Translations under genes and position numbers: made by a program
Assembly: GCA_002371155.1 (NCBI GenBank)
Contig: DFGC01000005.1
Span: 20,024 to 84,023, forward strand
Length of the DNA stretch: 64,000 nt
Reading direction: 5' to 3'
From: Alphaproteobacteria bacterium UBA3760
GTDB taxonomy: Bacteria > Pseudomonadota > Alphaproteobacteria > Rs-D84
In this document: positions 1 to 46,671 of the stretch, piece after piece
Layout: each line of letters begins with the position of its first letter
Numbering within the stretch: position 1 is the first letter of the stretch
The notes under the pieces: model-generated
The model's input: the letters and a program-made list of their open reading frames with translations, nothing else
Told to the model about the DNA's origin: nothing
Database searches by the model: none

Positions 1-761
1 GTGCAGTTTCGGTCAATTTTGATTATTTGGCAGACAAAGACAGAAAGTTGAAAAATTTATGGGAGAGTTGTTTTTCATCAGGTGGAACAATGCGGTCTGC
101 GTTGAAAAAATGGGTTGATGATTTGCAATATGGCGATATGTTTAATGAAGATGCGGATACTTTGGATTTACAATCAAGATTGACAACTTTTGATTTTACA
201 GATATTTTACAAGACCCGGTTTTGGCACCTGCGGTGATTTCATATATTTTACACAGAATAAATAATACAACGGTGTCGGGTGGAAATCCGTCGTTGATTA
301 TGATTGATGAAACCGCGCCTATGTTGGAAAACAAAATGTTCCGTGATAATTTTATTGCGGGTTTGCAAGAAGGTCGTAAAAATCGTCAGGCATATATGGT
401 TGCGTTCCAACGCGCAAATGTATTGGATAAACTGGGGATTGGTGATGTTGTTCGTGGTCAGGCACAAACGGTTATGTTTTTCAGAAACCCCGGCGCGGAT
501 TTATCGGACTATGAACATTGGAAATTAAATCCGTTGGAAATGGCGTTTATTCAAGGCAAGGCATATCCAAATTTGAAAAGGGCGGTGTTGTTGTCGCGGC
601 CGGTGAATAATGAGTCTGTTATTTTGAATACAGAATTGGGAGGTTTGGGCAATTTATTAAAATTGTTCGAATCAGGGCGTTCGTCGGTATTATTAGCCGA
701 AGAATTATATAAATCGTATGGGAGCGCATTTGTAGAAGAATATCTGAAAAAAAATGTTTAG
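1..761 (+). CDS. virB4: VirB4/TrbE-family type IV secretion ATPase, C-terminal fragment (gene starts upstream of the window)
   Basis: The frame is open from the window start to the stop at 761. It carries an IDE (Walker B-like) segment and the conserved VirB4 C-terminal block (RKNRQAYMVAFQ...TVMFFRNPGADLSDYE...LNPLEMAFI...VLLSRPV...ILNTELGGL). Confidence 0.6.
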   Translation, partial: AVSVNFDYLADKDRKLKNLWESCFSSGGTMRSALKKWVDDLQYGDMFNEDADTLDLQSRLTTFDFTDILQDPVLAPAVISYILHRINNTTVSGGNPSLIMIDETAPMLENKMFRDNFIAGLQEGRKNRQAYMVAFQRANVLDKLGIGDVVRGQAQTVMFFRNPGADLSDYEHWKLNPLEMAFIQGKAYPNLKRAVLLSRPVNNESVILNTELGGLGNLLKLFESGRSSVLLAEELYKSYGSAFVEEYLKKNV

Positions 762-1380
762 ATTTTTTACCTTTTGGTTGGCTTGTTTTGTAATTACTGC
801 GGGCTATGCAGAAGATAAATGTGTCGCTTATAAAACAAGACCTGGGGTCCAAATAAAAAAACCCGATTGGGTGAAAAAAGTAGGGCAACCGTTGCGTATG
901 ATGGATTTATATCATGGTAATGTCATTGCAACATTGGTTGATGAATATGATATTGTTGTAAATGTCAATGAATTACCAAATAATGATGGGTTTTGTGTGG
1001 GTATCAAAGATATAAATGCAACAATCGGTTATAGTGATTTCTTGGTCAAGGTTGATATGCGACATAAATTCGGGTCGTGTTCGTATAAAACGGTTTTGGA
1101 ACATGAAGGCGAACATATAAACGCATATTTGTCGGTTATTGATGATTTCCAAGATGATTTGAAAAAATCTGTTTATACGGCGGCAAATTCTATTATACCA
1201 ATTTATGTTAAAAAAGAAGAAGATATTGATGATGCAATTGATAATTTGAATTATAAATTGCAACATCATCCAGATGTTGTTTTGGTTAAACAACAAATTT
1301 CTGCGGCCGAAGAATTGCGCAATGAAAAAATCGATGAAGATAACAGTCAGTATGAAGAATTGAAAAAGTGTAATGGTTAA
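754..1380 (+). CDS. secreted protein with HExxH zinc-metallopeptidase-like motif (HEGEHIN), DUF922-like; paralog 1
   Basis: N-terminal signal peptide and a conserved H-E-x-x-H-I-N motif shared with the next ORF. The start overlaps the virB4 stop by 8 nt. Confidence 0.5.
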   Translation: MFRFFTFWLACFVITAGYAEDKCVAYKTRPGVQIKKPDWVKKVGQPLRMMDLYHGNVIATLVDEYDIVVNVNELPNNDGFCVGIKDINATIGYSDFLVKVDMRHKFGSCSYKTVLEHEGEHINAYLSVIDDFQDDLKKSVYTAANSIIPIYVKKEEDIDDAIDNLNYKLQHHPDVVLVKQQISAAEELRNEKIDEDNSQYEELKKCNG

Positions 1381-2044
1381 AAAATTATTCTGTGTTTTGT
1401 TATGTTTCGGATTTGTTTTTCATGCGAATGCGGATGAAAATCGTTGTGCGAAATATAAAAAAATTCCACAAATAAATGTTAAACGCGCAGATTGGAAAAC
1501 AACGGTCAGTCAATCAGATGATGATTTATGGCCGCGTGCGGGTTATGTTAAAATTGAACCGTTCAGTTCTTTTTTGCCGGGGGTTTCGTATACTTTTGAT
1601 GGCAGATATTATTGTGTGTTGTTGGAATCGGTAAATGTTGAAATTGGATTTAATGATTTTAATATTTTTGTCGATAAAAAATATGAGAAAGATTCTTGTG
1701 AATATAATGCGGTGTTGAATCATGAAAATCATCATATAAATGATGCGGTTGCGGCGTTTGATGTGGTTTTCCCAAAAATTGAAATTGCATTGCGTGATAT
1801 TGTAAATAATATAGAACCTGTTTATACTCAAAATGTTGATGAAATTCCGGTGATTGTTGAAAATATGCAAAATAAAATTGTGAAAGATGAAAGTCTGAAA
1901 AAATTAGTTGATGATTTCAAAGAACAATTGCAATCTGATGCGCATGATTTAGATGATGCGCCAACCGACGAATTTAATAAATGCACAGCCGATAGAGTGA
2001 AAAAGGCTTTTGAAAAATATAACAAGAAAAAAGGTTTGTTGTGA
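1373..2044 (+). CDS. secreted HExxH-motif protein (HENHHIN), paralog 2
   Basis: Signal peptide. It shares the Cys/Trp spacing and the HExxHIN motif with the 754..1380 product. Its start overlaps the previous stop. Confidence 0.5.
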   Translation: MVKKLFCVLLCFGFVFHANADENRCAKYKKIPQINVKRADWKTTVSQSDDDLWPRAGYVKIEPFSSFLPGVSYTFDGRYYCVLLESVNVEIGFNDFNIFVDKKYEKDSCEYNAVLNHENHHINDAVAAFDVVFPKIEIALRDIVNNIEPVYTQNVDEIPVIVENMQNKIVKDESLKKLVDDFKEQLQSDAHDLDDAPTDEFNKCTADRVKKAFEKYNKKKGLL

Positions 2045-2391
2045 AAGATAAAATTGTAAAATTTGTAAAACAAGAATATGGGGCGAAACCTGAATATTTA
2101 TGGAAAAAATATCCGACATTTTGTGTGTTTCGGCATGTGGATAATAACAAATGGTTTGCGTTGGTTGCAACATTGCCGCGTAAAATATTGGGTGTATCTG
2201 GGGACGGCATGGTTGATTTTATAAATGTTAAATGCGATAAAGAAACTATCGATTTTTTTCATGGTGTAAATGGTATTTTGCCGGCATATCATATGAATAA
2301 ACAAAACTGGATAACGGTTTTATTGGACGGCACCGTGCCAGAAAAAAATGTAAAAAAACTGATTAGTATGTCGTTCGATTTAACAAAATAA
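2041..2391 (+). CDS. YjbR/MmcQ-family small protein
   Basis: 116 aa with the typical KWFALV...VKCD...LLDG pattern. It overlaps the preceding stop by 4 nt, so it is in the same operon as virB4 and the HExxH genes. Confidence 0.5.
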   Translation: MKDKIVKFVKQEYGAKPEYLWKKYPTFCVFRHVDNNKWFALVATLPRKILGVSGDGMVDFINVKCDKETIDFFHGVNGILPAYHMNKQNWITVLLDGTVPEKNVKKLISMSFDLTK

Positions 2392-2563
2392 AACCCGCCC
2401 AAAATGATGGGGGATTTTTAATATTTTTTTGATTTTGTGGGATAGGGCGGGAAGAAATGTAAAAATAATAAAGAGCAAGATTGAGGACAGGGGATGGAAT
2501 TCGCTCGTCTGGAACCATGGCAACAATGGCGGGGGATGGGTTTCGCGAAAATATGGCACAAGT

Positions 2564-2665
2564 CCGCCTTCGCTGATAAGCATAAATTTTTTTGCAAGAT
2601 TACGGACAATGCTACGGCGGGACACTGAATTTTCTAAAAAAAATACCGCGCAAGCGGTATTTTTA
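2564..2665 (+). ncRNA. candidate small RNA / repeat family R2, copy 1 (CCGCCTTCGC...ACGGACAATGCTACGGCG...TTTCTAAA + hairpin + U-run)
   Basis: About 100-nt non-coding stretch ending in the palindromic hairpin ATACCGCGCAAGCGGTAT plus a T-run. A second copy with the same conserved blocks lies at 48909..48994. Confidence 0.3.
2643..2665. terminator. bidirectional rho-independent terminator (perfect palindrome ATACCGCGCAAGCGGTAT flanked by T-runs on both strands)
   Basis: 18-nt perfect palindrome with TTTTT on the plus strand and TTTTTTT on the minus strand immediately 3' of tRNA-fMet. Confidence 0.5.
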
Positions 2666-2674
2666 GAAAATTCG

Positions 2675-2751
<77 letters not shown>

Positions 2752-2848
2752 ATGATAGGCTATATTATATACTAAATTATATTCCTGTCAATTAAAAATC
2801 ATTTTTTACCGGTGTTTTTTGCATTTTTTGTGTTTTTTCTTTGTTCCC

Positions 2849-2877
2849 TTGCATTGTTTTTTTATTGTTGCTATGAT
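2849..2877 (+). promoter_or_regulatory. putative sigma70 promoter (TTGCAT-17-TATGAT) for the acyltransferase-lpxK-lpxC operon
   Basis: The -35 and -10 elements have 17-bp spacing about 30 nt upstream of the ATG at 2905. Confidence 0.3.
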
Positions 2878-2904
2878 TTTTTTATATTTATATGGTGGGC
2901 TGTT

Positions 2905-3687
2905 ATGGCAAGAAGTAAATTTAGAAAGTATGTTTTAGACCCTTTTTTGGGGCTGGATATTGTTCAATGGTGTATTGCGGTGCCGGTCGCAATTATCATG
3001 TGGTTGATGTTTATCACATGTTGCACGCATATTCGCAATAAAAAGGTTTTGAAAGAATATTCTAAAAAGCCGGCTGTGTTCGTGTTGTGGCATGGGCGGA
3101 CGATGATACCGACATTGGTTATGGGGTTGTATGGTATGCATGCATGTGCCGTCACCAGTCGCAATAAAGACGGGAGACTTATGGCGAAAATTCAGCATTT
3201 GTTTGGTGCGCGTGCCGTGTATGGCAGTACCAGCAACGGTGCGGTGTCTGTATTGCGGGCGGGGGTGCGTGTGTTGCGGAACGATGGGCGCAGTATTGTT
3301 ATGTGTCCCGATGGCCCCAGTGGCCCGTCTTTGCGATTGCAAGATGGTGCGATGTATTATGCAAAAATGGCGGATGTGCCAATTATTCCGGTATGCTTTG
3401 CGTCGTCGAAATCATGGTTCCAGACGCGTTGGGACCGGTATTTGATTGCGTTGCCGTTTTCTAAAAATATTATGGATGTGGGTGAGCCTATATTTGTAAA
3501 ATCAAAAATAAAATCGCCGGAATTTGAAAAAGAACGCAAAAAAATCGAGGATATTTGTGTTAAACAAATGCGTGATTTGGATAAAATGTTTAATTTAATG
3601 CAGGTCGAACAAGATATGACGGCGTCTGAATTCAAACAAAGAATGCGCGAAGCAAAAAAATTGCAAAAACAGGTAAATAAAAAATGA
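2905..3687 (+). CDS. DUF374-like lipid A-associated acyltransferase family protein (lysophospholipid acyltransferase-like)
   Basis: It lies upstream of lpxK and is translationally coupled to it, with an N-terminal TM segment. The start is taken at MARSKF (2905) rather than the upstream in-frame M, whose poly-F leader looks non-coding. Confidence 0.45.
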   Translation: MARSKFRKYVLDPFLGLDIVQWCIAVPVAIIMWLMFITCCTHIRNKKVLKEYSKKPAVFVLWHGRTMIPTLVMGLYGMHACAVTSRNKDGRLMAKIQHLFGARAVYGSTSNGAVSVLRAGVRVLRNDGRSIVMCPDGPSGPSLRLQDGAMYYAKMADVPIIPVCFASSKSWFQTRWDRYLIALPFSKNIMDVGEPIFVKSKIKSPEFEKERKKIEDICVKQMRDLDKMFNLMQVEQDMTASEFKQRMREAKKLQKQVNKK

Positions 3688-4625
3688 AAACACCAAAATG
3701 GTTTATGAAAAAAAATCTGGTTGCAATTTTATTATTGCCGTTGGCGGGTGTTTATTATTTATCCAGTCGGGCTGTGTTCAAATTGCGTGCGCGAAACCCG
3801 TTGCAATCAAAACGAAAAATTGTATGTATCGGAAATATTTTGGCGGGCGGTGTTGGTAAAACACCCATTGTGCGTCAGATTGCTGAATTTTTGGATGCGC
3901 CGGTTGTTATGCGTGGGTATAAACAAACACAATATACAAATGGTATCGGGGACGAGGCAATAATGCTGGCGCGGGGTGGATTAAATGTTCACACCGGGGA
4001 CAGAAAAAGTAATATCATTTTGTTGAATAAACAAAAATCCAAAAACCCAATTGTGATGGATGATGGATTCCAAAACCCAGCAATTAAAAAAGATATTTCT
4101 GTGATTGTTATAGATGAAAATTTTGGATTCGGTAATGGATTTTTGTTGCCGGCGGGACCAAAGCGCGAAACGGTTGCAGCGTTAAATCGTGCGGATGCGG
4201 TTATTATTATGCAAAATGCGCGTGCGCCAAAAAAATATCAAAGTCAAAAAAGTGTTCGGGACGCGTTAAAATTGCCTGAAAAAATGCCAGTGTTTTTTGC
4301 AGAAAATACTACGATTTCACCGTATGCGGAAAACGAGCCATTGGTTGCGTTTGCGGGAATTGGGTATCCGAAAAAGTTCTTTGACCGGTTGAAAAATGTT
4401 GTTGTGAAAAAATCTTTCCCAGACCATTATCAATATAATGATAAAGATTTGAAATATTTATTCGATTTGGCAAATAAAAATGATGCGCGTTTAATTACAA
4501 CTGAAAAAGATTGGGTGCGGTTGCCGGTGGATGTGCGCGATGAAATTAAATATGCCAAGTTGGAAACAAAAATAGAATCTAAATTTTTTGATTGGTTAGA
4601 GGGAAAATTAAATGGCGACTTTTAA
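3684..4625 (+). CDS. lpxK: tetraacyldisaccharide 4'-kinase
   Basis: P-loop GNILAGGVGKTP characteristic of LpxK, 313 aa, overlaps neighbours on both sides. Confidence 0.8.
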   Translation: MKTPKWFMKKNLVAILLLPLAGVYYLSSRAVFKLRARNPLQSKRKIVCIGNILAGGVGKTPIVRQIAEFLDAPVVMRGYKQTQYTNGIGDEAIMLARGGLNVHTGDRKSNIILLNKQKSKNPIVMDDGFQNPAIKKDISVIVIDENFGFGNGFLLPAGPKRETVAALNRADAVIIMQNARAPKKYQSQKSVRDALKLPEKMPVFFAENTTISPYAENEPLVAFAGIGYPKKFFDRLKNVVVKKSFPDHYQYNDKDLKYLFDLANKNDARLITTEKDWVRLPVDVRDEIKYAKLETKIESKFFDWLEGKLNGDF

Positions 4626-5550
4626 GAAAAAATTTGAAATAAACGGTGTTGGTATTCACAGTGGTGCGCCGGTGCGTATGGTTGTGCGTCCGCGCAAAGC
4701 GTCGGGAATTGTTTTTTATCGTGTTGATTTGGATAAAAATTTTCCCATAGATGCAATTTATTCAAATGTTGGGGAAACCAGATTCAGAAATACAACAATT
4801 GGTCAATTAAATGGCCCGCATGTCAAAACAATTGAACATTTTATGGCGGCGTTGCATGTTGTTGGTGTTGACAGTGCCGTTGTTGAAATAGATGGTGCCG
4901 AGGTTCCAATATTAGATGGCAGTGCGTATGAATTTGTTGAAAAATTTTTGTCGGTTGGTGTTGTTGGTGGAAAACCTAAAAAAATTATTGTTAAAAAAGA
5001 AGTTATTGTAAAATCCGCAGATGCGAAAAAAAATGTGCCGTTTTTGGAAAGGGCTAAATTTTGGATTTTGAATAAATTGGCGGGGCGAAAAACAGACGGT
5101 TTTGTAAAATTGTCCCCAAATGATGGGCGTGCGTTAAATATTACGGCGACATTGGTGTATCCTGAAAAAATTATTGGGGCGCAAAGTTTTTCTTATAAAT
5201 ACGATGGAACGAAAAAATCGCGCGATGTGTTTATTCGTGATGTTGCGCGTGCACGAACATTTGGAAAAATTTCTGAATGGGAAACATTAAAACGGCATGG
5301 TATGGGGCGGGGCGCATCGGAACATAATGTGATTGCCGTAAATGCCACAGGCGATGGGACATTAAATAAATTATATTGGGCTGATGAATTTGTTCGGCAC
5401 AAGGTTGTCGATGCGTTTGGTGATATGTTTACATCGGGTGGAATTATCATTGGTGATTTGGTGTCAAACAAGGGCAGTCATGCAATGAATAATTTGGTTC
5501 TGCGTAAATTATTTAGCGACCCGGAAAATTATGAAATTGTTGAAAAATAA
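4612..5550 (+). CDS. lpxC: UDP-3-O-acyl-N-acetylglucosamine deacetylase
   Basis: 312 aa. N-terminus KKKFEINGVGIHSGAPVRMVVRP and the conserved HF..A and G....H blocks of LpxC. Confidence 0.85.
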   Translation: MATFKKKFEINGVGIHSGAPVRMVVRPRKASGIVFYRVDLDKNFPIDAIYSNVGETRFRNTTIGQLNGPHVKTIEHFMAALHVVGVDSAVVEIDGAEVPILDGSAYEFVEKFLSVGVVGGKPKKIIVKKEVIVKSADAKKNVPFLERAKFWILNKLAGRKTDGFVKLSPNDGRALNITATLVYPEKIIGAQSFSYKYDGTKKSRDVFIRDVARARTFGKISEWETLKRHGMGRGASEHNVIAVNATGDGTLNKLYWADEFVRHKVVDAFGDMFTSGGIIIGDLVSNKGSHAMNNLVLRKLFSDPENYEIVEK

Positions 5551-5588
5551 TTTTTAATGTATAAATCAAAGGAACAAAGGAGAAAAAT

Positions 5589-5918
5589 ATGAAAAAAATT
5601 ATTTTGTGTTTGTGTGTGGCGTTGTTGACGGCGTGTAATCATACGGTTGATGTATCGGAAAAATCGTCTGATTTAATCCAGGTTGCGTCTGCGCCAGAAA
5701 ATTGTGTGTTTTTGTATAAAATAAATGCAGATGCGTCGGTGTATTCCCATGATGACGCAATTCAATACTTGAAAAATCGGATTGTGGCACAAAACAAAAC
5801 CGGTAATGTGTTTTGGTTAGAAAAAGATGAAAAACAACAAAATTCATGGGTGATGTTTGGGCCTGAATATAAATATATTATGACGGCGCGTGTGTATGAT
5901 TGTGGTGGGAAAAAATAA
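5589..5918 (+). CDS. small lipoprotein, hypothetical
   Basis: Signal peptide with an LTAC lipobox and a good RBS (AAGGAG). 109 aa. Confidence 0.45.
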   Translation: MKKIILCLCVALLTACNHTVDVSEKSSDLIQVASAPENCVFLYKINADASVYSHDDAIQYLKNRIVAQNKTGNVFWLEKDEKQQNSWVMFGPEYKYIMTARVYDCGGKK

Positions 5919-5944
5919 TTTTGGTAAATTGTGTTATTATATGT

Positions 5945-5974
5945 TTGCCAAAGATTGTATTTTTTTGTTATAAT
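5945..5974 (+). promoter_or_regulatory. putative sigma70 promoter (TTGCCA-17/18-TATAAT) for the pilus-like operon
   Basis: Near-consensus -35 and -10 elements lie 25 nt upstream of the AGGAGA RBS and the TTG start at 5997. Confidence 0.35.
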
Positions 5975-5996
5975 CATATTCAGGAGAGATTGAAAA

Positions 5997-7286
5997 TTGT
6001 CAGACAAGGTTAGTGGTTCTTTTGCGGCGGCGGGTCGGACCGATGTGTTGCGCGTGAACAAGAAAAAGTTCGCGGTGGGTTTGTTTTGGCAACCGGTCGC
6101 GGTCGGATATACTCCGCGGAACTATGCCAAGATATTGGCGAAAAATTCCAAGACAGATGCAAATTTGTTTGTTGAATATCGGTCGATGGTTGGCTTGGCC
6201 GCCAAGGCGCGTGGTGGATTTTCGGGAATGCCATCGGCGGCGGCGGAAATTGTTGATGCGTTGAGTGAATATTCATCTTTCTTGGCGGTGTTTTTAATCG
6301 ATAAAAAATATTATTTGTTGGCGGTGCGTAATGGTGTCATTTTGGCGGATAAATTATTTGATTCTGATTCAGATGCCCGCGCAGAATATGCAAAATATGC
6401 AAAAATTCCTGATTGGTCGGCGTTTATTGCACCAAATTCGTGGGGAATACCGCGTGCAATTGAAAAACATCTGAATTTATTGTTGCCGCGTAAAACAAGA
6501 TATCATTTGCGCCCAATCAGTCGGTGGCCGTCCAGAATTTTGTCTGTTATTTTGTTGGTTGGTTTTTTTGCGCTGGTTTATTTTATTTTTCGTGAACCAA
6601 TCGATAAAATGCGTGAACATAAACCTGTGCAATTAGACCCAGAATTGGTCGCGGAATATAAACGCCAGGTCGAAGAAAAAAATAAAGAATTGGATGCGCA
6701 ATTCGAAATAAAAAAAGAAGAAGTTAAACCGTTGGTTATGCCGTATTCTGAATTGCCGGTGCCAATGGCGCGCGCCAAACAATGTTATCAGGCAATTGGA
6801 TTTTTAATGCAACCGATAACCGGATGGGTGCAAACAAATGTTTCGTGTGATGAAACAACCGCCACAGCCGAATTTACCAGAAAATATGGTTCGTTGGATG
6901 CGTTCTATGTTATGGCGGAAAAATTTCTGCCGGGGGTAAATGTTGATGAATTAAACGAAGATACTTTGCGTGTGAATGTTGCGTTGCCTGAAATTCCACG
7001 CGCCGCGTCCCAAGATGAAAATGATGCGTTGACGGTTGAAAGAAATGTTATCAGTCTGTTTCAATCGATTGATACAGACGCAAAAACAAATGTTGTTGTT
7101 GATACATTGTCAAACGGTGTTGATACGGCAAATTTGAATATTGTCGAAATCGAGGTTTCTTCTAAATTGTTGCCAATGCAATTTATAAAAATCTTTGACG
7201 ATTTTGGTGGTGTTTATATGACGCGTTGTTTGTGGAACGCGGTATCAAGGACTTGGAACTATGAGGTTATAATCTATGCAAAATAA
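5997..7286 (+). CDS. type IVb pilus biogenesis protein, R64 PilO-like (bitopic, central TM)
   Basis: 429 aa with one central TM (ILSVILLVGFFALVYFIF). It is the first gene of a four-gene module whose order and sizes match R64 pilO-pilP-pilQ-pilR. TTG start with a strong RBS. Confidence 0.45.
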   Translation: MSDKVSGSFAAAGRTDVLRVNKKKFAVGLFWQPVAVGYTPRNYAKILAKNSKTDANLFVEYRSMVGLAAKARGGFSGMPSAAAEIVDALSEYSSFLAVFLIDKKYYLLAVRNGVILADKLFDSDSDARAEYAKYAKIPDWSAFIAPNSWGIPRAIEKHLNLLLPRKTRYHLRPISRWPSRILSVILLVGFFALVYFIFREPIDKMREHKPVQLDPELVAEYKRQVEEKNKELDAQFEIKKEEVKPLVMPYSELPVPMARAKQCYQAIGFLMQPITGWVQTNVSCDETTATAEFTRKYGSLDAFYVMAEKFLPGVNVDELNEDTLRVNVALPEIPRAASQDENDALTVERNVISLFQSIDTDAKTNVVVDTLSNGVDTANLNIVEIEVSSKLLPMQFIKIFDDFGGVYMTRCLWNAVSRTWNYEVIIYAK

Positions 7287-8031
7287 AATTAAATTTTTTG
7301 GTTTGTTGTTGGTGATGTTTTCGTGTGTCGTATCGCATAATTCATATGCGGATGATGATTTGGTTGAAGAAACCATTGAATATGGTGATGTGGATTATAA
7401 TAATAAAACAGGATTGGAATATGCGTCTGATGCGATTGTCCAAGATATTATCGGCGCAACATCGGTTGCCGATTATGATGTCAATGGAACTGTGTTTCAA
7501 CAAATTACTGATTTGGAACAAGAAAAAGTTTTAATGCAATTGGAAAAAGAACGCGCACAATTGGATTTGGATTTGGACAGATTGGCGGCGGAAAAAATTA
7601 AATTGCAAATGGAAATGGATACACTGTCGGGACGCGCCGACCAAGAACGGCAAATTTTGCAAAATGAAAAATCAAAATTGGAAGCCGAGGCCGCCAGAAT
7701 CGAACAAGAAAAACGCGCGTTGAGTGCCGCCACAGAATCAACCGAGTATTCAAATGTTGAAACGCAAACACAACCGAAAAAATCTGCGCCGAAAAAGGTT
7801 GCCAGAAATGTCGAAGGCGATGATATTGCGTCATTATATAAATTGGTCAATGTTATGGGTGCGGGAAATCAATTACAGGCAACTTTGTCTGATTTGGAAA
7901 CAGGTCAAACCAAACGCGTCAGTGTTGGTAAAAAAATAGATGGATTTACCGTTAAATCAATTTCTTTGGAAGATGGTGTCGTGTTTAGTAAAGATGGCGA
8001 AACGCAAAATTTGAATATATCCAGTCGGTAA
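7276..8031 (+). CDS. type IVb pilus PilP-like periplasmic protein (signal peptide, coiled coil, C-terminal beta domain)
   Basis: Signal peptide, an extended coiled coil and a C-terminal GxxK..V..G..I.G block. It overlaps the upstream gene by 11 nt. Confidence 0.4.
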   Translation: MQNKIKFFGLLLVMFSCVVSHNSYADDDLVEETIEYGDVDYNNKTGLEYASDAIVQDIIGATSVADYDVNGTVFQQITDLEQEKVLMQLEKERAQLDLDLDRLAAEKIKLQMEMDTLSGRADQERQILQNEKSKLEAEAARIEQEKRALSAATESTEYSNVETQTQPKKSAPKKVARNVEGDDIASLYKLVNVMGAGNQLQATLSDLETGQTKRVSVGKKIDGFTVKSISLEDGVVFSKDGETQNLNISSR

Positions 8032-8035
8032 AAAA

Positions 8036-9661
8036 ATGAGTAAGAATAAAATTGATGATGATTTGTCAAAAAAAACATCTGTGCCGGATGGTATGGATGG
8101 TGCCGAGGCAAAAGAAATCGTCGATTATTTGTTTTCTAATGGAAACCGGTTGCTGACCGCGACGGGTGCGCGGATGGAATTGTCCAAAGATGTCCAAAGT
8201 TTAATTGCGTATTTTTCAGGTGGTGAAATTATTATTTCCAGAACACATAAATATGATGGGCGCGTGTTGGCTTTTTTGGATTTATTGCGTGAAAGAAATA
8301 TGCCAAAACGGATTCCGTTTTATTCTGATTTAGGATTGATTTCGGCAATATACAAAACATATGAAGACCGGTTGGGTAATGTTGTTCGTGCGCGCACCGA
8401 TTATGATAATCAGATGCAGAAAGATTTTGTTGATATTATCGCGCGGGCGGCCGCACAAAAGGTGTCTGATGTGCATATCGAGGTCGCAGACCAAACAACA
8501 ATTTATTTCCGTATAGATGGCAGTATGCAACCTGTGTTGGAATATAATTCGGCATGGGGTGAATCGTTTGTTCGTGCCGCGTTTGCGTCTGCGGATATTT
8601 CAAATTCGAATTATGCACAAAATGAATACCAATCGGCACAGAAAGACGGACGAACACCGTTGCGTGGAACCAAAGATTTATATCTGCCAAATGGTGTGAC
8701 CAGTATTCGTATGCAATTTAATCCGATTGCGTTTGGGTCGCGTTATGTCGTTATGCGATTGTTGTATGATAACCCGTCCGAAGGTATTAAAACAGAACAG
8801 GAATTTGGTGAATATGAACAAAATTTGTTGATGCGTTTGCGTGCGTATCCAACGGGTTTGGTGATTGTTGCGGGTCCGACATCGTCAGGTAAATCTACGA
8901 CTTTGGTGCGAAATATGGCGTTGATGTTAAAAGAACGTAATTATGAAATAAATATGATAACGGTGGAAAATCCGGTTGAACAAAAAATTTTTGGCGCGCA
9001 TCAGATGCCGGTTGTGAACGCTATGAACGAAGAACAACGCGATGAAAAATATACCGAGGCTTTGGCGGCGGCATTACGCAGCGACCCCGATACATTGATG
9101 GTTGGTGAAATACGAACTTTGGCGGCGGCACAGTTGACGGTGCGTGGTGCGTTGTCGGGGCATAATGTTTGGACAACATTGCATGCGAATTCTGCGATGG
9201 CGGCATTGACCCGTTTGTTGGATATGGGTGTTGAAAGTTTCAAGTTGAAAGATGAAACACTGATGCGCGGATTGGTGTCTATGCGGTTATTCAAAAAATT
9301 ATGTCCGCATTGTCGTGAACCGTTGGTAAATCATCCAGAACACCCGGCGTATCGGCGTGTCAAAGATGCGTTCGGTATGGTTGGTGTAAAGCAGACTTTT
9401 GTTCGTGGTCCCGGGTGCAGCGAGTGCAAAGGTTCGGGAACATTTGGACGAATCAAGGCGGGCGAAATCATTATTACAAACAGTGAATTTTTACGATTGG
9501 CATTGGCGGGGAATACTGATTTGGCCATGAAATATTGGTTGGAAGAAATGGACGGACGTACATTGAAAGAGGCCGCCGCGGAATTGATGTTAAAGGGTAT
9601 TATTGGTGTCGATGAATTAGAACGGTGGGTCGGATTATTGGATAGACCTGGGGAATATTAA
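8036..9661 (+). CDS. type IV pilus / type II secretion family assembly ATPase (GspE/PilB; R64 PilQ-like)
   Basis: Walker A GPTSSGKSTT, Asp box, His box and a C-terminal tetracysteine motif CPHC...C..C typical of GspE-family ATPases. Confidence 0.8.
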   Translation: MSKNKIDDDLSKKTSVPDGMDGAEAKEIVDYLFSNGNRLLTATGARMELSKDVQSLIAYFSGGEIIISRTHKYDGRVLAFLDLLRERNMPKRIPFYSDLGLISAIYKTYEDRLGNVVRARTDYDNQMQKDFVDIIARAAAQKVSDVHIEVADQTTIYFRIDGSMQPVLEYNSAWGESFVRAAFASADISNSNYAQNEYQSAQKDGRTPLRGTKDLYLPNGVTSIRMQFNPIAFGSRYVVMRLLYDNPSEGIKTEQEFGEYEQNLLMRLRAYPTGLVIVAGPTSSGKSTTLVRNMALMLKERNYEINMITVENPVEQKIFGAHQMPVVNAMNEEQRDEKYTEALAAALRSDPDTLMVGEIRTLAAAQLTVRGALSGHNVWTTLHANSAMAALTRLLDMGVESFKLKDETLMRGLVSMRLFKKLCPHCREPLVNHPEHPAYRRVKDAFGMVGVKQTFVRGPGCSECKGSGTFGRIKAGEIIITNSEFLRLALAGNTDLAMKYWLEEMDGRTLKEAAAELMLKGIIGVDELERWVGLLDRPGEY

Positions 9662-9663
9662 AA

Positions 9664-10734
9664 ATGGAAGAGTTAGAATTATTTTATGCAAAAATGGTGT
9701 TCAAATTTAATACAGAACGCCGGTTGGCTTTGATTCGCAAATTGGCATCATTGTTGCGGAATAATTTTTCTTTGATGGATGCGTTGGTCAGAATTGAAAA
9801 AATCGAATCTGATAATGGGCGAAAACCGGATGAACCGTATGCAATCGCAATGCGGATGTGGCAAAAAAATCTGGAAATGGGTATGAGTTTTTCTGATGCG
9901 ACGCGTGGTTGGTTGCCGGCGGAAGAAACATTATTGGTGACAAGTGGTAATGTTGCAGATTTGGTTGTTGCGCTGGAAAATGTCGATAAAGTTGTAAATG
10001 GAACAACCAAAATAAAGCGCGCAATGAGAAGCGCAATTGCGTACCCATTGTTTTTGTTGATTTTGACATTTGGTATTATTGTTATGGTTGGAATGTATTT
10101 GGTGCCACCGTTGGCGGATGTGGCGGGGCCAAATGTTGTGTGGCATGGCGCAGCAAATTTGTTGATAATGGTATCTGAATTTTCAATAAAATATTGGTCT
10201 GTGATTTTGGTTGCGTTTGTTTTGTTATGTGTTTTGGTGTGGTTCAGTTTGTCAAATTGGACTGGATGGTTGCGGGCAAAATTTGATAAATTGCCACCGT
10301 GGAATATATATAAAATGCATACATCGGTTGGGTGGTTGATGTCTTTGGCGGCTTTTGTTGCGGCGGGGGTGTCTATGCCGGATGCAATGCGTATTTTGGC
10401 GGATAATGCAAACAAATATTTGCGTGATATTTTAGACGAAACATTACGGTATATTGCAAATGGTGATAATTTAGGTGTCGCGTTGTCGAATACAGGTCGC
10501 GATTTCCCAAATCAAGAAATTATTGGCGATTTAACTATTTATTCTGAAATGAATGATTTTGATGCAAATATCGAAAGATTGGCAGATGATTATTTGCAAA
10601 ATTCTGTGCGAAAAATGGAATCGATATCCAGCACATTGAACAGTTTTGGAATTTTATTGGTATCGGCAATTATCGCATGGGTTGTGTTGGCAACTTTCCA
10701 AATGCAAGACCAAATTACAATGATGTTATCATAA
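9664..10734 (+). CDS. GspF/PilC-family inner-membrane platform protein (R64 PilR-like)
   Basis: 356 aa polytopic membrane protein with the GspF-type three-TM architecture and two cytoplasmic domains. It starts 3 nt after the ATPase gene. Confidence 0.7.
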   Translation: MEELELFYAKMVFKFNTERRLALIRKLASLLRNNFSLMDALVRIEKIESDNGRKPDEPYAIAMRMWQKNLEMGMSFSDATRGWLPAEETLLVTSGNVADLVVALENVDKVVNGTTKIKRAMRSAIAYPLFLLILTFGIIVMVGMYLVPPLADVAGPNVVWHGAANLLIMVSEFSIKYWSVILVAFVLLCVLVWFSLSNWTGWLRAKFDKLPPWNIYKMHTSVGWLMSLAAFVAAGVSMPDAMRILADNANKYLRDILDETLRYIANGDNLGVALSNTGRDFPNQEIIGDLTIYSEMNDFDANIERLADDYLQNSVRKMESISSTLNSFGILLVSAIIAWVVLATFQMQDQITMMLS

Positions 10735-10741
10735 TAAAAAA

Positions 10742-10764
10742 ATCCCCAAGATGGGGATTTTTTT
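10742..10764 (+). terminator. rho-independent terminator (ATCCCCAAGATGGGGAT + T7)
   Basis: Perfect 6-bp GC-rich stem followed by a T-run, directly after the platform-gene stop. Confidence 0.6.
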
Positions 10765-10855
10765 ATTTTCAGAGTTCACTCCGTCGCCAAAGGCTATGGG
10801 GTGCGGGCAAAGCGCAGAGTTCAAATGATGAATTATTATTGGTAAAGCGTTGCGA

Positions 10856-11425
10856 TTACACCATAAATGGCAGGTTTTCCAATGTGCCTTCGGTGACACG
10901 AACATTTACATCTATCAACATAAATATTGCGTCGGGTGATGGTTTTATATTGCATGGAAACATATCGTGCGATAGCAAGTGTGATGTGTTGACCGTCAAT
11001 TTTGTGACCAAATGGTCGTCGTCCAAAAGTGTATAAATTGGGCCAATGTCGGTTGGTGTGTTTGCGCCAATTTCGTGTTCGTTTTGGGGGCAACGCAATC
11101 CGTCCATCAATGTTTTTATTCGGTTATCTATATCAGAACGCGCAACACCAACGATTTCAGGGTGCAACATTAAAATATCCAGTTCGGCAATCATTTTCAG
11201 GTTCGGACTGATAATCGGATTCCAATCTATGCCGCCGACATGACGGGTTATCAATGGGGCCTTGGACGCGTTGGGCAACATGTATCGTGTTAAATTATCC
11301 CATGGACTGTGTTCTACTAATTTTTTTAATTGTGGGTGAAATTGCATGCGGATGTCTGCGATGTGTTGCGCGCGTTTTTTAGGGTTGACAAAAATATCAC
11401 CAAAATAAATCAGTTTAAATTTCAT
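10856..11425 (-). CDS. hypothetical protein
   Basis: 189-aa ORF with an RBS. No motif recognised. Confidence 0.3.
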   Translation of the reverse strand: MKFKLIYFGDIFVNPKKRAQHIADIRMQFHPQLKKLVEHSPWDNLTRYMLPNASKAPLITRHVGGIDWNPIISPNLKMIAELDILMLHPEIVGVARSDIDNRIKTLMDGLRCPQNEHEIGANTPTDIGPIYTLLDDDHLVTKLTVNTSHLLSHDMFPCNIKPSPDAIFMLIDVNVRVTEGTLENLPFMV

Positions 11426-11430
11426 AATAA

Positions 11431-13916
<2,486 letters not shown>

Positions 13917-13917
<1 letters not shown>

Positions 13918-14582
13918 TGTTTGATGCAGATTGGTTTTGGAATCTGGATAAAACACTGCGGGAACGTGGGTTGGATTCAGATTCCAAATCTTTTGATGAA
14001 ATACGCGAAATGCTGGCAACACCAAAACGATTGTCGGGCGACGCGTTTTCTGATGAATGTGCCTATGTGATTTTGGCGGGTGGTTTTTCGCAAAAAACAG
14101 CAAAAAGAATTCATAAAATAATTTGTGAAAAATTGCGTGCGGGTGCGGGATTTGATGATTTAATAAAAATTTTTAACAATAAAAATAAAATAAATGCGAT
14201 TTGTAAAATTTGGCAAAATCGCAACGCGTTGTGTGATGAATATTATTCCAAAAAAACATTAGATGATAAATTGGCGTTTATACAAACATTACCACATATT
14301 GGAAAGATAACTGCAAATCATTTGGCGCGAAATTTGGGGTGTGATATTGTTAAATATGATATTTGGATTCAACGGTTGGGGGCGCTATACGCAGGGAATC
14401 CGGAAATTTTTGCAATTATAGATAATGGAAAATTAAATCCGCAAATAAAAAAATATTGTGATGATATGTTTGCGCATTTGGTGCGTGAAACAGGATTACC
14501 GCGCGGGTATGTTGATGTTGTGTTATGGAAATCTTGTCAAAATGGTTTAATCAAGGGATTAAAATATGGATGTGAAAATTGA
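13917..14582 (+). CDS. HhH-GPD-superfamily DNA glycosylase-like protein (LPHIGKITA...D motif)
   Basis: Helix-hairpin-helix LPHIGKITANHLARNLG followed about 9 residues later by VKYDIWIQRLG, the spacing of the catalytic Asp in HhH-GPD glycosylases. The ATG overlaps the gyrB stop and the stop overlaps the ung start. Confidence 0.4.
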
Positions 14583-15228
14583 AGAGTCTTGGAAACGCGA
14601 ATTGGCACCCGAATTTGATAAAGATTATTTTCGAGAACTGACAGATTTTGTACGTGGTGAATATTTGTCGGGCAAACAAATTTATCCGGCGGCACGAAAT
14701 ATTTTCAATGCGTTTAATTTGTGTCCGGTGGATTCTGTGCGCGTTGTGATTATTGGCCAAGACCCATATCACGAACCCGGTCAGGCGATGGGATTGTGTT
14801 TTTCGGTGCCAAATGGCATAACACCGCCGCCGTCGTTGCAAAATATTTATCGTGAAATTGAATCTGATTTAGGGCACCCCAGTTCGACGCATGGTGATTT
14901 GACGCATTGGGCAAAGCAGGGCGTGTTATTGTTAAATTCAACATTGACGGTCCAGGCACATTTGGCGGCATCGCACGCGGGCCGGGGCTGGGAACAATTT
15001 ACCGATGCGGTAATTGCGGCATTGGCAAAACGCAAAAATATTGTTTATATGTTGTGGGGTTCGTATGCACAAAAGAAAGCCGCGTTGGTGGATAACACGC
15101 AAAATTTAGTGTTGAAAACGGTGCATCCGTCGCCGTTATCAGCATATCGTGGATTTTTTGGTTGCAAACATTTCAGTCGTGCAAATGAATATTTGGCGCA
15201 ACACGGTAAATCACCCATAGATTGGTAA
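14566..15228 (+). CDS. ung: uracil-DNA glycosylase (family 1)
   Basis: Motifs GQDPYH and HPSPLSA. 220 aa. Confidence 0.85.
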   Translation: MDVKIEESWKRELAPEFDKDYFRELTDFVRGEYLSGKQIYPAARNIFNAFNLCPVDSVRVVIIGQDPYHEPGQAMGLCFSVPNGITPPPSLQNIYREIESDLGHPSSTHGDLTHWAKQGVLLLNSTLTVQAHLAASHAGRGWEQFTDAVIAALAKRKNIVYMLWGSYAQKKAALVDNTQNLVLKTVHPSPLSAYRGFFGCKHFSRANEYLAQHGKSPIDW

Positions 15229-15230
15229 AA

Positions 15231-15806
15231 TTAAAAATTATGCGTTAAACCCAATCCGTAAAATGCGTAAGAATGGTTGTCTTCGGCGGTGTTTGCGTTG
15301 GAAAAATGTTGTATAAACAGTTCAGTTGCCCATTCTTGGGTTATGTTCACACCAATTGTGACCTTGAATTGGAATAACAATTTTGCACCCAGGCGTTTGT
15401 TTTCTTTGACCTGTAATCCGACGCCGGCACCCATACCCATGTATAACCGTTTATATCGAAACAGGGCGATGTCTTCGGTGGCATATCCGATTGGAATTGT
15501 GTAATCGGTCCAATCCCAACCATTTTTACTGCCCAATCCCAATGTTTCAGAAATATTCAGACTGCGTCGTGCCGGAATACGAAAAAATGTCGTTGGTTGC
15601 GAATATGTTATTGTTCCAATATAAAAAGGCACAGGTCGCACCGGTGGTGGTAATAAAATTCCGGTATCGAAACCTTGGCCGATGCCGTAAAACATTTGGT
15701 TTTGGTATGTTCCCATAAATGGGTTGCGTTCGGGTAAAAACCAATCGTCGGCCAATGCGATGTTTGGTAAAATAATGGGTAATAAAAATAATAATCTTGT
15801 TTTCAT
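15231..15806 (-). CDS. outer-membrane lipid A 3-O-deacylase (PagL)-like beta-barrel
   Basis: Signal peptide, amphipathic beta-strand pattern, a C-terminal HFSNA (His/Ser active-site pair) and a terminal aromatic residue. The start is taken at MKTRLLF. Confidence 0.5.
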   Translation of the reverse strand: MKTRLLFLLPIILPNIALADDWFLPERNPFMGTYQNQMFYGIGQGFDTGILLPPPVRPVPFYIGTITYSQPTTFFRIPARRSLNISETLGLGSKNGWDWTDYTIPIGYATEDIALFRYKRLYMGMGAGVGLQVKENKRLGAKLLFQFKVTIGVNITQEWATELFIQHFSNANTAEDNHSYAFYGLGLTHNF

Positions 15807-16008
15807 ACCGACAATTTTATCATATTTTGCATATAAAAACAAACTGGAAAAAATAAATTTAATAAAATAATCACGCCGTGGCGCAAGCGAAAGAATTATA
15901 TAAAAATATTATCTATATGGCTATGATTATTAAAAAAAGCCCTTAAAAAAAGGCCATAATACTTGAATTATGACCGATATTGTTCTAATATGACCCAAAA
16001 GGTAAAAG

Positions 16009-17019
16009 ATGAATAAAGAATTTAATTTTTTGGTATATAACACTCCAAACCAAGATGTTAAAATAAATGCTATGGTACGGGATGACACAATCTGGCTTAC
16101 CCAAAAATCTATGGCTGAATTGTTCGGAGTTCAGATTCCCGCTATTAGCAAACACCTTAAGAATATATTTGAAGAAGGTGAATTAGATGAAAAAGTGGTT
16201 GTTTCCAAAATGGAAATAACCACTCAACATGGAGCAATATCCGATAAAACTCAAACATCAGAAACCCAATTTTATAATTTAGATGCTATTATATCTGTTG
16301 GATACAGGGTTAATTCTGTTAAAGCCACTAATTTCAGAATATGGGCAACCAAAGTTTTACACGAATATATTCAAAAGGGGTTTGTTCTGGATGACGAGAG
16401 ATTAAAACAAGGCAAACAAGCCTTTGGCAAAGATTATTTTCGTGAATTATTAGAACGTGTCCGTTCTATTCGTGCATCTGAACGCAGAATATATCAACAA
16501 ATCACAGATATATTTGCAGAATGCTGCATTGATTACGATAAGAATTCAGATATTACTAATAATTTCTATGCAACTGTTCAAAACAAATTCCATTATGCAA
16601 TTACTGGTCAAACTGCTGCTGAAATAATATATACAAAAGCGGACAGAACGAAAGACAATATGGGATTAACCACATGGAAACATTCACCAGATGGACGGAT
16701 TTTGAAATCAGATGTAGGGATTGCTAAAAACTATCTTTCTGAAAAAGAAATCAAACAGTTGGAACGAACTGTATCTGGATATTTTGATTATATTGAAGAT
16801 TTAATTGAACGAGAAAACACATTTACAATGGCCGAATTTGCAAACAGTGTAAACGAATTCTTGGCTTTCAGAAAATACGATGTACTGCCAGATAATAATC
16901 ATGGTCGTATATCAAATGCAAAGGCTATTAAACATGCAGAATCAGAATACGCTGCATTTAATAAAACCCAAAAAATAGAATCTGATTTTGATAAACAGGT
17001 TAAAAAAATGTTAAAATAA
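16009..17019 (+). CDS. RhuM-family virulence-associated protein
   Basis: Characteristic N-terminus NAMVRDDTIWLTQKSMAELFGVQIPAISKHLKNIFEEGEL and a conserved central region. Its codon usage is atypical for this window (CTT, AGC, GGA) and its local GC is lower. Confidence 0.6.
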   Translation: MNKEFNFLVYNTPNQDVKINAMVRDDTIWLTQKSMAELFGVQIPAISKHLKNIFEEGELDEKVVVSKMEITTQHGAISDKTQTSETQFYNLDAIISVGYRVNSVKATNFRIWATKVLHEYIQKGFVLDDERLKQGKQAFGKDYFRELLERVRSIRASERRIYQQITDIFAECCIDYDKNSDITNNFYATVQNKFHYAITGQTAAEIIYTKADRTKDNMGLTTWKHSPDGRILKSDVGIAKNYLSEKEIKQLERTVSGYFDYIEDLIERENTFTMAEFANSVNEFLAFRKYDVLPDNNHGRISNAKAIKHAESEYAAFNKTQKIESDFDKQVKKMLK

Positions 17020-17219
17020 CAAATCTGGGACTCTCAAATTTTCGCAGATTTCCAAAGGTTATCACAAAAAAATGGTGGGAAATTTATACTTTGTAGAATA
17101 TACACATAAAACATCAGAAGTCCGCTTTCATTCACTACGTTCATTACAGCGAGACATCCGTTTCTCTAACTCTACATCTTCGCTTGCTTTCTGCGAAACC
17201 AATCTCGCTGTAGCGTAAG

Positions 17220-17293
17220 CGAAAGCAGATGGTGCCCTAAGCAAGAATCGGACTTGCGACTCGTCCTTACCAAGGACGTGTTTTACCACTAGA
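17220..17293 (-). tRNA. tRNA-Thr(GGU)-like gene with aberrant T-loop (TCCGATT) and imperfect D-stem; possibly a pseudogene or element-borne tRNA
   Basis: The reverse complement is GCCCTAATAGTCTAGTGGTAAAACACGTCCTTGGTAAGGACGAGTCGCAAGTCCGATTCTTGCTTAGGGCACCA. It has perfect 7-bp acceptor, 5-bp anticodon and 5-bp T stems, anticodon GGU, U33 and an encoded CCA. Position 55 is C, and one D-stem pair is mismatched. Confidence 0.45.
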
Positions 17294-17398
17294 CTATTAG
17301 GGCAACAGCGGTATTATACCTGTTCGCGGATAAAAATCAACATAAAAACCATTTTTTACTAGATTTTTATTTTTTTACCATTATAATGCGTTTTGTTT

Positions 17399-17475
17399 GG
17401 CGGGATAGCTCAGCTGGTTAGAGCAGTGGAATCATAATCCACGTGTCGGGGGTCCGAGTCCCTCTCCCGCTACCA
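17399..17475 (+). tRNA. tRNA-Met (anticodon CAU; elongator Met or Ile-lysidine type)
   Basis: GGCGGGATAGCTCAGCTGGTTAGAGCAGTGGAATCATAATCCACGTGTCGGGGGTCCGAGTCCCTCTCCCGCTACCA folds as a canonical cloverleaf with an encoded CCA. Confidence 0.8.
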
Positions 17476-17488
17476 CAGGTTTTATTGA

Positions 17489-17514
17489 CCCACACAGTAT
17501 TGTGTGGGTTTTTT
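17489..17514 (+). terminator. rho-independent terminator after tRNA-Met (CCCACACA-gtat-TGTGTGGG + T6)
   Basis: 8-bp perfect stem followed by TTTTTT. Confidence 0.6.
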
Positions 17515-17573
17515 ATTGGGATTTAGGAATATAATCGGATTTGACAAAATTTTTGCATAGGAAACAAAAACAG

Positions 17574-17601
17574 TTGACAATTTAATTTTTTGGTGTATAT
17601 T
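17574..17601 (+). promoter_or_regulatory. near-consensus sigma70 promoter (TTGACA-16-TATATT)
   Basis: Perfect -35 hexamer and a strong -10 element, 35 nt upstream of the GGAGG RBS and the ATG at 17635. Confidence 0.45.
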
Positions 17602-17634
17602 ATGCTCATAATAAAACATTTATGGAGGCAAAAT

Positions 17635-19389: not shown

Positions 19390-19394
19390 AATAA

Positions 19395-19413
19395 ATCCCC
19401 ATTTTATGGGGAT
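19395..19413 (+). terminator. hairpin (ATCCCC-attttat-GGGGAT), weak terminator
   Basis: 6-bp GC stem immediately after the stop at 19389. The T tract is short. Confidence 0.3.
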
Positions 19414-19472
19414 TCTTAATACTTGCAAATTGTGTTTTGGGGTGTATGTTATATTTAACAAGAGGTGATAGT

Positions 19473-19802
19473 ATGCATGATATAAATGCGAAGTTCCAAC
19501 AAGTGTGTGCAAAACAACAACAAGAAAAAAACAGACGGCAACAAAGAATAGAAAAATATGCACATAACATTGAAGATTTTATGAATATTTATCAGATTGA
19601 AAAAACAGGACTGTGTTCCGAATTTGTTGCGTCGTATTATGCCAAGAAATGCCAAGAATTAGGTAATGCGGAGTTTAATAAAATAAAAAATCAAGCCCAA
19701 GGATATATCCGACATTTGGAAGTGTCTGGTCAGATAAGCGAACATATCAATTGGTTTAAGTTTGTTTTGGAAAAAGTTGGTGGTGGTTTTGAACGGTCTT
19801 AA
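19473..19802 (+). CDS. hypothetical small protein
   Basis: 109 aa from MHDINAKF with an RBS (AGAGGTGA). It is preceded by the TACTTGCAAATTGT promoter motif. Confidence 0.35.
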   Translation: MHDINAKFQQVCAKQQQEKNRRQQRIEKYAHNIEDFMNIYQIEKTGLCSEFVASYYAKKCQELGNAEFNKIKNQAQGYIRHLEVSGQISEHINWFKFVLEKVGGGFERS

Positions 19803-45063: not shown

Positions 45064-45088
45064 ATGGTTTTTATAAAGGAATATAAAA

Positions 45089-46669: not shown

Positions 46670-46671
46670 TC

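Follow-up and report, generated by a model that had tools for sequence, protein, structure and literature searches.

What are four tightly packed genes that resemble part of a pilus assembly machine doing between lpxC and gyrB on a bacterial chromosome? The question is raised by a 64,000-nucleotide stretch of contig DFGC01000005.1 from Alphaproteobacteria bacterium UBA3760 (hereafter the window, meaning this whole stretch). An initial annotation had read these genes either as a decaying remnant of a conjugative pilus or as a minimal, repurposed assembly and secretion motor. Our analysis led us to propose, with a probability of roughly 0.7, that the module is the intact operon for the inner-membrane and alignment sub-complex of a chromosomal type IVb pilus (T4bP) machine, the genes of which are scattered over the chromosome of this uncultured gut or rumen alphaproteobacterium. 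The four genes are packed on the forward strand within positions 5997–10734, with lpxK-lpxC on one side and gyrB on the other, and their open reading frames (ORFs), sizes, families and flanks were confirmed as first described:

5997..7286, + strand: PilO2/BfpC-family bitopic protein, 429 aa, with a cytoplasmic N-domain, one transmembrane segment and a periplasmic C-domain (PF06864)
7276..8031, + strand: PilP-family protein, 251 aa, with a signal peptide, a coiled coil and a C-terminal PilP domain at residues 127–236 (TIGR03021)
8036..9661, + strand: type IVb-class extension ATPase (PilQ/BfpD-like), 541 aa (T2SSE)
9664..10734, + strand: GspF/PilC-family inner-membrane platform (PilR/BfpE-like), 356 aa, with three transmembrane segments (T2SSF)

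The junctions between these genes are short: the PilO and PilP genes overlap by 11 nt, and gaps of 4 nt and 2 nt separate PilP from the ATPase and the ATPase from the platform.

The family identity of the four proteins was examined by profile searches. The PilO protein matched the Pfam family PAP_PilO (PF06864) with 47.1 bits and an E-value of 2e-12 (cutoff 26.7 bits), its homologues carry the NCBI name 'type 4b pilus protein PilO2', and a single hydrophobic, putatively transmembrane segment was found at residues 180–198. The profile of its family also matched the N-domain structures of PilO2Bp, 4byz (E 0.0015) and 4bz0 (E-values 0.0015–0.0023 overall). The 4byz structure of this N-domain defines PF06864, and its actin-like fold occurs in BfpC as well (PMC3984277). 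The protein can be assigned to the PilO2/BfpC family of bitopic proteins, and this membership predicts an actin-like N-domain. The PilP protein matched the NCBIfam model TIGR03021 (pilP_fam) over residues 127–236 with 39.1 bits (cutoff 34.65). The ATPase gave 215 bits against Pfam T2SSE (1e-63) and carries the Walker A motif GPTSSGKST together with LMVGEIR and GHNVWTTLH, a Walker B-like motif and a His box being present, as well as a tetracysteine motif, CPHC-x34-CSEC, at residues 423–464. Of the proteins with solved structures, its closest match is BfpD, the extension ATPase of the bundle-forming pilus (BFP) of enteropathogenic Escherichia coli (EPEC), which was matched over residues 34–525, the N-terminal domain included (1.9e-78, 267 bits); GspE reached 2.9e-44 and 155 bits and PilB 119–125 bits, with PilB/PilF well behind BfpD. 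Against the GspE, PilB, TadA and VirB11 models the ATPase scored far under every cutoff, for instance 217 bits against the GspE model TIGR02533 (cutoff 630), 34.7 bits against a TadA-family model (cutoff 373) and 187 bits against a PilB-type model. These matches place the ATPase in the T4bP branch, with apparently intact Walker motifs and predicted zinc-binding motifs. The platform protein matched Pfam T2SSF in two stretches (84.6 bits), as a single two-domain GspF protein with three transmembrane segments, and is 33% identical to the platform of the Bosea T4bP locus.

As judged from their sequences, the four proteins group with type IVb pili and not with the type II secretion system (T2SS) or Tad pili; this is the outcome of the profile check that had been proposed for them. 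The T2SS (GspC–M) shares with this locus a tetracysteine ATPase of the GspE superfamily and a GspF platform, and it uses an outer-membrane secretin, as the proposed pilus would; it differs in that PilO2 and PilP replace GspL/M/C here, and the distance of the ATPase from the GspE cutoff points the same way. None of the known T2SS components (GspC, G–K, L and M) was seen, no pseudopilin-like ORFs were present in the window, and the neighbours of the ATPase and platform genes are PilO2 and PilP. Membership in the Tad/Flp pili, which are marked by a TadA-type ATPase, TadB/C platforms, a Flp pilin and RcpA, disagrees with both the ATPase and the single two-domain GspF platform.

Analysis of related genomes then placed the module among the conserved parts of the chromosome. 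Upstream of it stand, in order, a DUF374 gene, lpxK, lpxC and a small lipoprotein gene, and downstream a 189-aa gene on the minus strand followed by gyrB. The mapped flanking features are:

3684–4625: lpxK
4612–5550: lpxC
5589..5918, + strand: small lipoprotein, 109 aa, lipobox LLTAC, lying between lpxC and pilO in relatives
11488–13917: gyrB

PilO has hundreds of homologues in metagenome-assembled genomes (MAGs) of uncultured bacteria named 'Alphaproteobacteria bacterium' from gut and rumen samples, and the clade includes MAGs under this name and under Candidatus Enterousia. The comparison set comprised 80 related metagenome loci, in which PilO is 41–98% identical to that of the window, plus the loci L001 (PilO 74%) and L005 (59%). 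The order DUF374-lpxK-lpxC-lipoprotein-PilO-PilP-ATPase-platform-orf189(−)-gyrB-orf221-UDG recurs in L001, in L005 and in the 80 metagenome loci. The module genes were collinear in every locus having all four (49/49), lpxC and the small lipoprotein gene preceded the module in 60 of the 60 loci with enough upstream sequence (lipoprotein identity 27–98%), and gyrB followed it in 35 of 37, the exceptions being an inversion in L046 and a rearrangement in L097. Median identity to the window was 82% for the ATPase (minimum 76), 67% for the platform, 52% for PilO and 51% for PilP, compared with 62% for LpxC and 87% for GyrB in the flanks, so that the ATPase stands above LpxC; across 60 related loci its identity ranged from 76 to 93%. 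Against the strain-level relative L002, 0 nonsynonymous changes were found in PilO and the ATPase at a synonymous divergence (dS) of about 0.10–0.14, and against L001 the ratio of nonsynonymous to synonymous divergence (dN/dS) was 0.055–0.18, giving 0–0.18 overall. The base composition and GC content of the module equal those of its flanks. Because of the collinearity, the fixed lpxC and gyrB flanks, the low dN/dS and the unremarkable GC content, we conclude that the module is an old, vertically inherited core chromosomal locus under strong purifying selection.

The module had also been credited with a promoter and a terminator of its own, and both elements can be read at its ends:

5945..5974, + strand: sigma-70-like promoter match TTGCCA-18-TATAAT, TG-extended, 11/12 consensus matches, followed by AGGAGAG and a TTG start codon at 5997
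10740..10769, + strand: hairpin AAATCCCCA-AGA-TGGGGATTT followed by a T run, intrinsic-terminator-like, just 3′ of the platform gene, read from the sequence

At the level of consensus these elements fit a promoter and a terminator belonging to the module, and to this extent the claim stands. However, promoter-like sites near the module were not enriched over shuffled sequences (14 found vs 18.8 expected), which leaves 5945–5974 as a consensus match only, and a simple terminator scanner did not list the hairpin and T run. The 109-aa lipoprotein between lpxC and pilO had no family match in Pfam, NCBIfam or PHROGs; it is a possible accessory protein of the module. For a role as a TcpQ/BfpG-like pilotin no support was obtained: with a very shallow profile, hhalign gave no similarity to TcpQ. 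The 189-aa protein (10856–11425, − strand) between the platform gene and gyrB likewise has no family match and is 76–92% identical in 43 related loci, above the conservation of PilO, PilP and LpxC. The gap between the platform gene and the 189-aa gene carries insertions of 1–2.4 kb in 8 of the 42 loci measured, and a similar 2.1-kb insertion is present in L001.

Comparison with known systems revealed which of them the module resembles. Its closest counterparts on plasmids belong to Bosea and Salmonella and are full T4bP clusters, arranged TcpQ-secretin-PilO2-PilP-ATPase-platform-PilT-like-pilins, and the matches on E. coli plasmids, at 34% identity, are bfp-like operons with the same gene order. 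Identity of the module to plasmid versions is 32–36% for the ATPase, 30–33% for the platform and 21–27% for PilO, which matched only 52 plasmid records, all listed as PilO2 and with Escherichia outside the ten commonest host genera. The blocks PilN-PilO-PilP-PilQ-PilR of R64 (IncI1) and PilN2-PilO2-PilP2-PilQ2-PilR2 of PAPI-1 and other integrative and conjugative elements (ICEs) comprise the same four families in the same order, PF06864 PilO2 and TIGR03021 PilP included. The R64-like order that the initial annotation pointed out is therefore real, but it is general to type IVb systems, bfp-like operons among them, and the few and distant PilO matches on plasmids give R64 no special place. In contrast to R64 and PAPI-1, the module here is chromosomal, vertically inherited, fixed between lpxC and gyrB and set apart from the secretin/TcpQ pair; it has no adjacent pilS/pilV pilins, peptidase, lytic transglycosylase, shufflon or recombinase, and no link to conjugation is evident. 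The marks of an R64-specific thin pilus (a conjugative plasmid or ICE, transfer genes, pilS/pilV and a shufflon) did not fit the locus, whose flanks are housekeeping genes in all relatives.

In the EPEC BFP (BfpG-BfpB-BfpC-BfpU-BfpD-BfpE), BfpD is the closest solved ATPase and BfpC shares PF06864 (PMC3984277). BfpB pairs with BfpG (PMC12531336), and the canonical secretin of the present clade likewise comes paired with a TcpQ-family protein. The BFP differs in having BfpU where this locus has a PilP-family protein, and in that a single operon also carries its pilin, its peptidase and the retraction ATPase BfpF, none of which adjoins the module here. A model for a pilus machine spread in this way is the type IVa pilus (T4aP) of Pseudomonas and Neisseria: its core genes occupy several conserved, unlinked places on the chromosome, with the motor, the alignment complex, the secretin and the pilins set apart from one another there as well. 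T4aP use PilM/N/O, as against PilO2 here, a PilB-type ATPase and the retraction ATPases PilT/PilU. On the pili of this clade itself, nothing relevant was found in the literature.

Some relatives revealed a canonical outer-membrane partner, a TcpQ-family gene next to a PF00263 secretin gene:

L097, 192–2694: TcpQ + PF00263 secretin pair
L101, 9081–11614: TcpQ + PF00263 secretin pair
L102 and L103, 9017–11629: TcpQ + PF00263 secretin pair

In L097, whose PilO is 45% identical to that of the window, the TcpQ-family gene and a lipoprotein secretin of 543–559 aa start about 6 kb upstream of DUF374-lpxK. With this secretin as the query, 852 relatives were retrieved; the best 120 of the 852 are at least 79% identical, all PF00263, and come from the same kind of MAGs, Candidatus Enterousia merdequi included. 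In L101 and L102/L103 the pair occupies a second conserved site, sufBD-[TcpQ-secretin]-...-plsY-dprA-dnaA, and the L101 pair lies on the same 293,723-bp contig as the PilO locus L081, about 130 kb away. These findings suggest that the clade has a dispersed T4bP system, in which the canonical TcpQ-secretin pair would be the natural partner of the module and, in this genome, is expected outside the 64-kb window. The description of the module as 'minimal' is accordingly doubtful, as relatives encode the pair at a second conserved site. Right 3′ of the canonical secretin in related genomes lies a gene for a 766-aa Cys/Gly/Tyr-rich protein (L102 11959–14259).

The known functions of these families outline how such a machine would work at this locus. 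The ATPase, a hexamer, would bind both the polytopic platform and the actin-like cytoplasmic domain of PilO2, and ATP hydrolysis would lift processed pilins from the inner membrane into the fibre as this grows. In the periplasm, PilO2 and the PilP domain would link this motor to the N-terminal domains of the outer-membrane secretin, through which the fibre would leave the cell. A retraction ATPase of the PilT/BfpF type, which is present in the Bosea, Salmonella and bfp-like loci, is not encoded 3′ of the platform gene here. By analogy, the product would be a surface fibre, with adhesion, aggregation or DNA uptake in the gut as its likely roles. We infer that this genome also has a TcpQ-secretin pair, pilins and a prepilin peptidase outside the window.

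Several results weigh against the proposed pilus machine. As had been noted from the start, no pilin, prepilin peptidase or canonical secretin accompanies the module: a class III signal scan of all ORFs gave no prepilin in the window, and the Pfam scans of the window ORFs tested gave no A24 prepilin peptidase, the remaining ORFs being housekeeping genes by eye. The same class III scan detected no prepilin in about 100 loci from the clade, among them the neighbourhoods of both kinds of secretin gene, while it did pick up the pilins in the plasmid loci of Bosea and Salmonella; tblastn with the Salmonella A24 peptidase found no match in 80 clade loci. No TcpQ was found in the 64-kb window, where the sole secretin homologue is the divergent protein at 30139–31491, and of the relatives with the canonical pair, those with a measured PilO (L097, L081/L101) have one that is only 45–49% identical to that of the window. 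On the other side, pilin genes are often unlinked to the machine genes in type IV pilus systems, for example in the T4aP of Pseudomonas. Two sets of candidate pilins were rejected. The 238-aa ORF at 33507–34223 has a leader (...AFSG|TKIW) reminiscent of an odd prepilin, but the Gly is not conserved in L008/L009 and the product reads as an anchored helical-repeat protein; of the four proteins beside the canonical secretin in L101/L102 (329, 384, 377 and 766 aa), those of 329 and 766 aa read as non-pilins and the class III scan flagged none.

The lipoprotein at 30139–31491, which the initial annotation had called secretin-like and named as a possible partner of the module, proved to be a secretin homologue by profile, by hhalign and by AlphaFold 2 (AF2) modelling with Foldseek:

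30139..31491, + strand: 450-aa lipoprotein of the secretin family, divergent and shortened, apparently sharing an operon with lolCE-lolD (profile-profile comparison and AF2/Foldseek)

As a single sequence it matched nothing in Pfam, NCBIfam or the PDB besides a sub-threshold STN, and a shallow-profile PDB search and an hhalign comparison with one PilN also gave nothing. When a family profile was run against 1.8 billion representatives, just 142 proteins were retrieved, the distant ones of which are bona fide PF00263 secretins, some of them fused to TcpQ. hhalign of the family against PilN-type secretins then gave a probability of 99.95% and an E-value of 1e-37 over residues 91–432, the terminal ELV..PR motif included. 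The AF2 model had a mean confidence (pLDDT) of 45 with a shallow alignment and 86.8 with a deeper one, and the top 25 PDB matches in Foldseek were all secretins, BfpB being second-best. Its periplasmic N0/N1-type domains are modelled with confidence and lead into a C-terminal secretin beta-domain that ends in ELV..PR and is about 40–50 residues shorter than in PilN types. The protein is thus a true secretin homologue, though a highly divergent one, and goes unrecognised by current family libraries. It is conserved at 73–85% across the clade, with lolCE-lolD directly 3′ in the window, L008, L009 and L019, and its similarity to the PilN of the clade does not exceed that to other secretins. In distant lineages the gene belongs to a cassette of the form helix-turn-helix (HTH) regulator-X-Y-[secretin-like]-Z, which adjoins VirB6-like genes in both L017 and L020, the L020 copy having VirB11, VirB10 and VirB9 genes as further neighbours; the cassette proteins in L017–L020 match no known family. 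A 106-aa ORF upstream of the secretin-like gene in the window (29806–30126) shows weak likeness (12 bits) to the C-terminal part of protein Y. From its sequence and predicted fold, the 450-aa lipoprotein is a candidate outer-membrane partner of the module, but it may also be unrelated to it.

How these observations are to be read depends on three alternatives. It seems to us unlikely that the module in this species uses the divergent lipoprotein as its outer-membrane channel in place of a canonical PilN, yet of the three this alternative is the most probable. The lipoprotein has N0/N1-like domains and no other secretin homologue lies in the window, its nearest true secretins by profile include TcpQ-fused proteins of T4bP type, and in relatives it occurs on the same contigs as PilO (113,526, 63,422, 99,541 and 73,781 bp, judged by matching sizes). 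This linkage, however, reflects conserved chromosomal synteny and not adjacency, as the gene never stands beside pil genes and has neighbours of its own, lolCE-lolD or the cassette near VirB genes; the clade moreover has a canonical TcpQ-PilN pair, and both the shortened secretin domain and the lack of any special closeness to PilN speak against the assignment. Somewhat less probable still is a repurposed, pilin-poor motor in which PilO2, PilP, the ATPase and the platform serve a non-pilus task, such as a T2SS-like piston or the handling of a substrate without the G/xxxxE signal, perhaps via the 30139–31491 secretin. The failure to detect a pilin or peptidase near the loci keeps such a pilin-independent use alive as a minority view: no canonical prepilin was found near any of three conserved loci (PilOPQR, TcpQ-PilN and the divergent secretin) in the clade loci scanned, the ATPase is almost as conserved as GyrB, which is unusual for an adhesion organelle, and the contigs carry a second, well-conserved secretin homologue. 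Dispersed pilin genes are nevertheless common, so that finding none within 10 kb counts for little; PilP and the TcpQ-PilN pair are the usual architecture of a pilus, and the T2SS-like variant is at odds with the GspE score and with the missing T2SS parts. A bolder form of the same idea, which we rate as a long shot, would have a gut lineage with a reduced genome keep a type IVb motor working without classical pilins to export something else, possibly through the short secretin apparently co-transcribed with lolCE-lolD; if true, this would be a new use of a type IV filament motor together with a new secretin subfamily.

The third alternative takes the module for the decaying remains of a thin pilus of the R64/PAPI-1 type, brought in between lpxC and gyrB from a conjugative plasmid or ICE, and is hardly tenable. 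In its favour, the gene order and families resemble plasmid- and ICE-borne T4bP blocks, and virB4, a gene of the type IV secretion system (T4SS), lies about 5 kb upstream. Against it, the four ORFs are intact with their catalytic motifs and dN/dS is 0–0.18, the location is identical in 35–60 independent loci down to 41% PilO identity, composition is not anomalous, and neither an integrase nor a repeat boundary caught the eye, although no search aimed at them was made. The virB4 gene is absent from the syntenic region of L005. What had been called a VirB4 fragment and a possible partner is merely a gene cut by the window edge, with at least 560 aa more upstream in L010; its product is part of a different machine, the T4SS, and no connection with the module emerged. 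The initial annotation had itself proposed that the remnant would have to be given up if relatives carried the same four genes between lpxC and gyrB as a broadly conserved core locus with pilin genes nearby. Relatives do carry them there, and the remnant reading fails on this ground, although no pilin genes lie nearby.

If the module is indeed part of a dispersed T4bP machine, a widespread set of uncultured Alphaproteobacteria from gut and rumen has among its core chromosomal traits a system until now known mainly from plasmids, ICEs and enteric pathogens, with the genes divided between two or more conserved sites, and the pilus would be a candidate organelle of colonisation, aggregation or DNA uptake for these organisms. 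The locus also cautions against concluding that a system is 'minimal' from one site, and a by-product of its analysis is a secretin-family lipoprotein that had escaped the family libraries.

Some further features of the window were recorded. The edge-cut virB4 is followed, within 27–2044, by genes for two overlapping paralogous secreted proteins of 208 and 223 aa (27% identical), each with an HExxH-like motif (HEGEH and HENHH) and no family match; a YjbR gene and a tRNA-Met come next, and no other T4SS genes follow. Over 1–15000 the GC skew is strongly positive (0.2–0.4) and nearly all genes are on the + strand, in keeping with a leading-strand location fairly close to the origin; in relatives, the TcpQ-secretin site has dnaA in its vicinity. 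The region 15800–19800 has low GC (0.33–0.36) and low GC skew, carries a RhuM-family gene (16009–17019), tRNA-Thr, tRNA-Met and a 599-aa protein without a family match, and may be an integrated element. A 590–595-aa ORF beside ftsQ (window 26838–28610, − strand; L008 and L009 6670–8457) joins an FtsA domain to a ribulose-phosphate 3-epimerase domain, and the fusion is kept in relatives. Cysteine-rich secreted proteins without a family match are encoded at 34233–34871 and 52694–54814, the 212-aa one containing a duplicated GCC.GE.Y.DLGDLGFNCC module. Finally, three tandem paralogous AMP-binding (acyl-CoA synthetase-like) genes, encoding 526, 526 and 524 aa, occupy 43483–48246.

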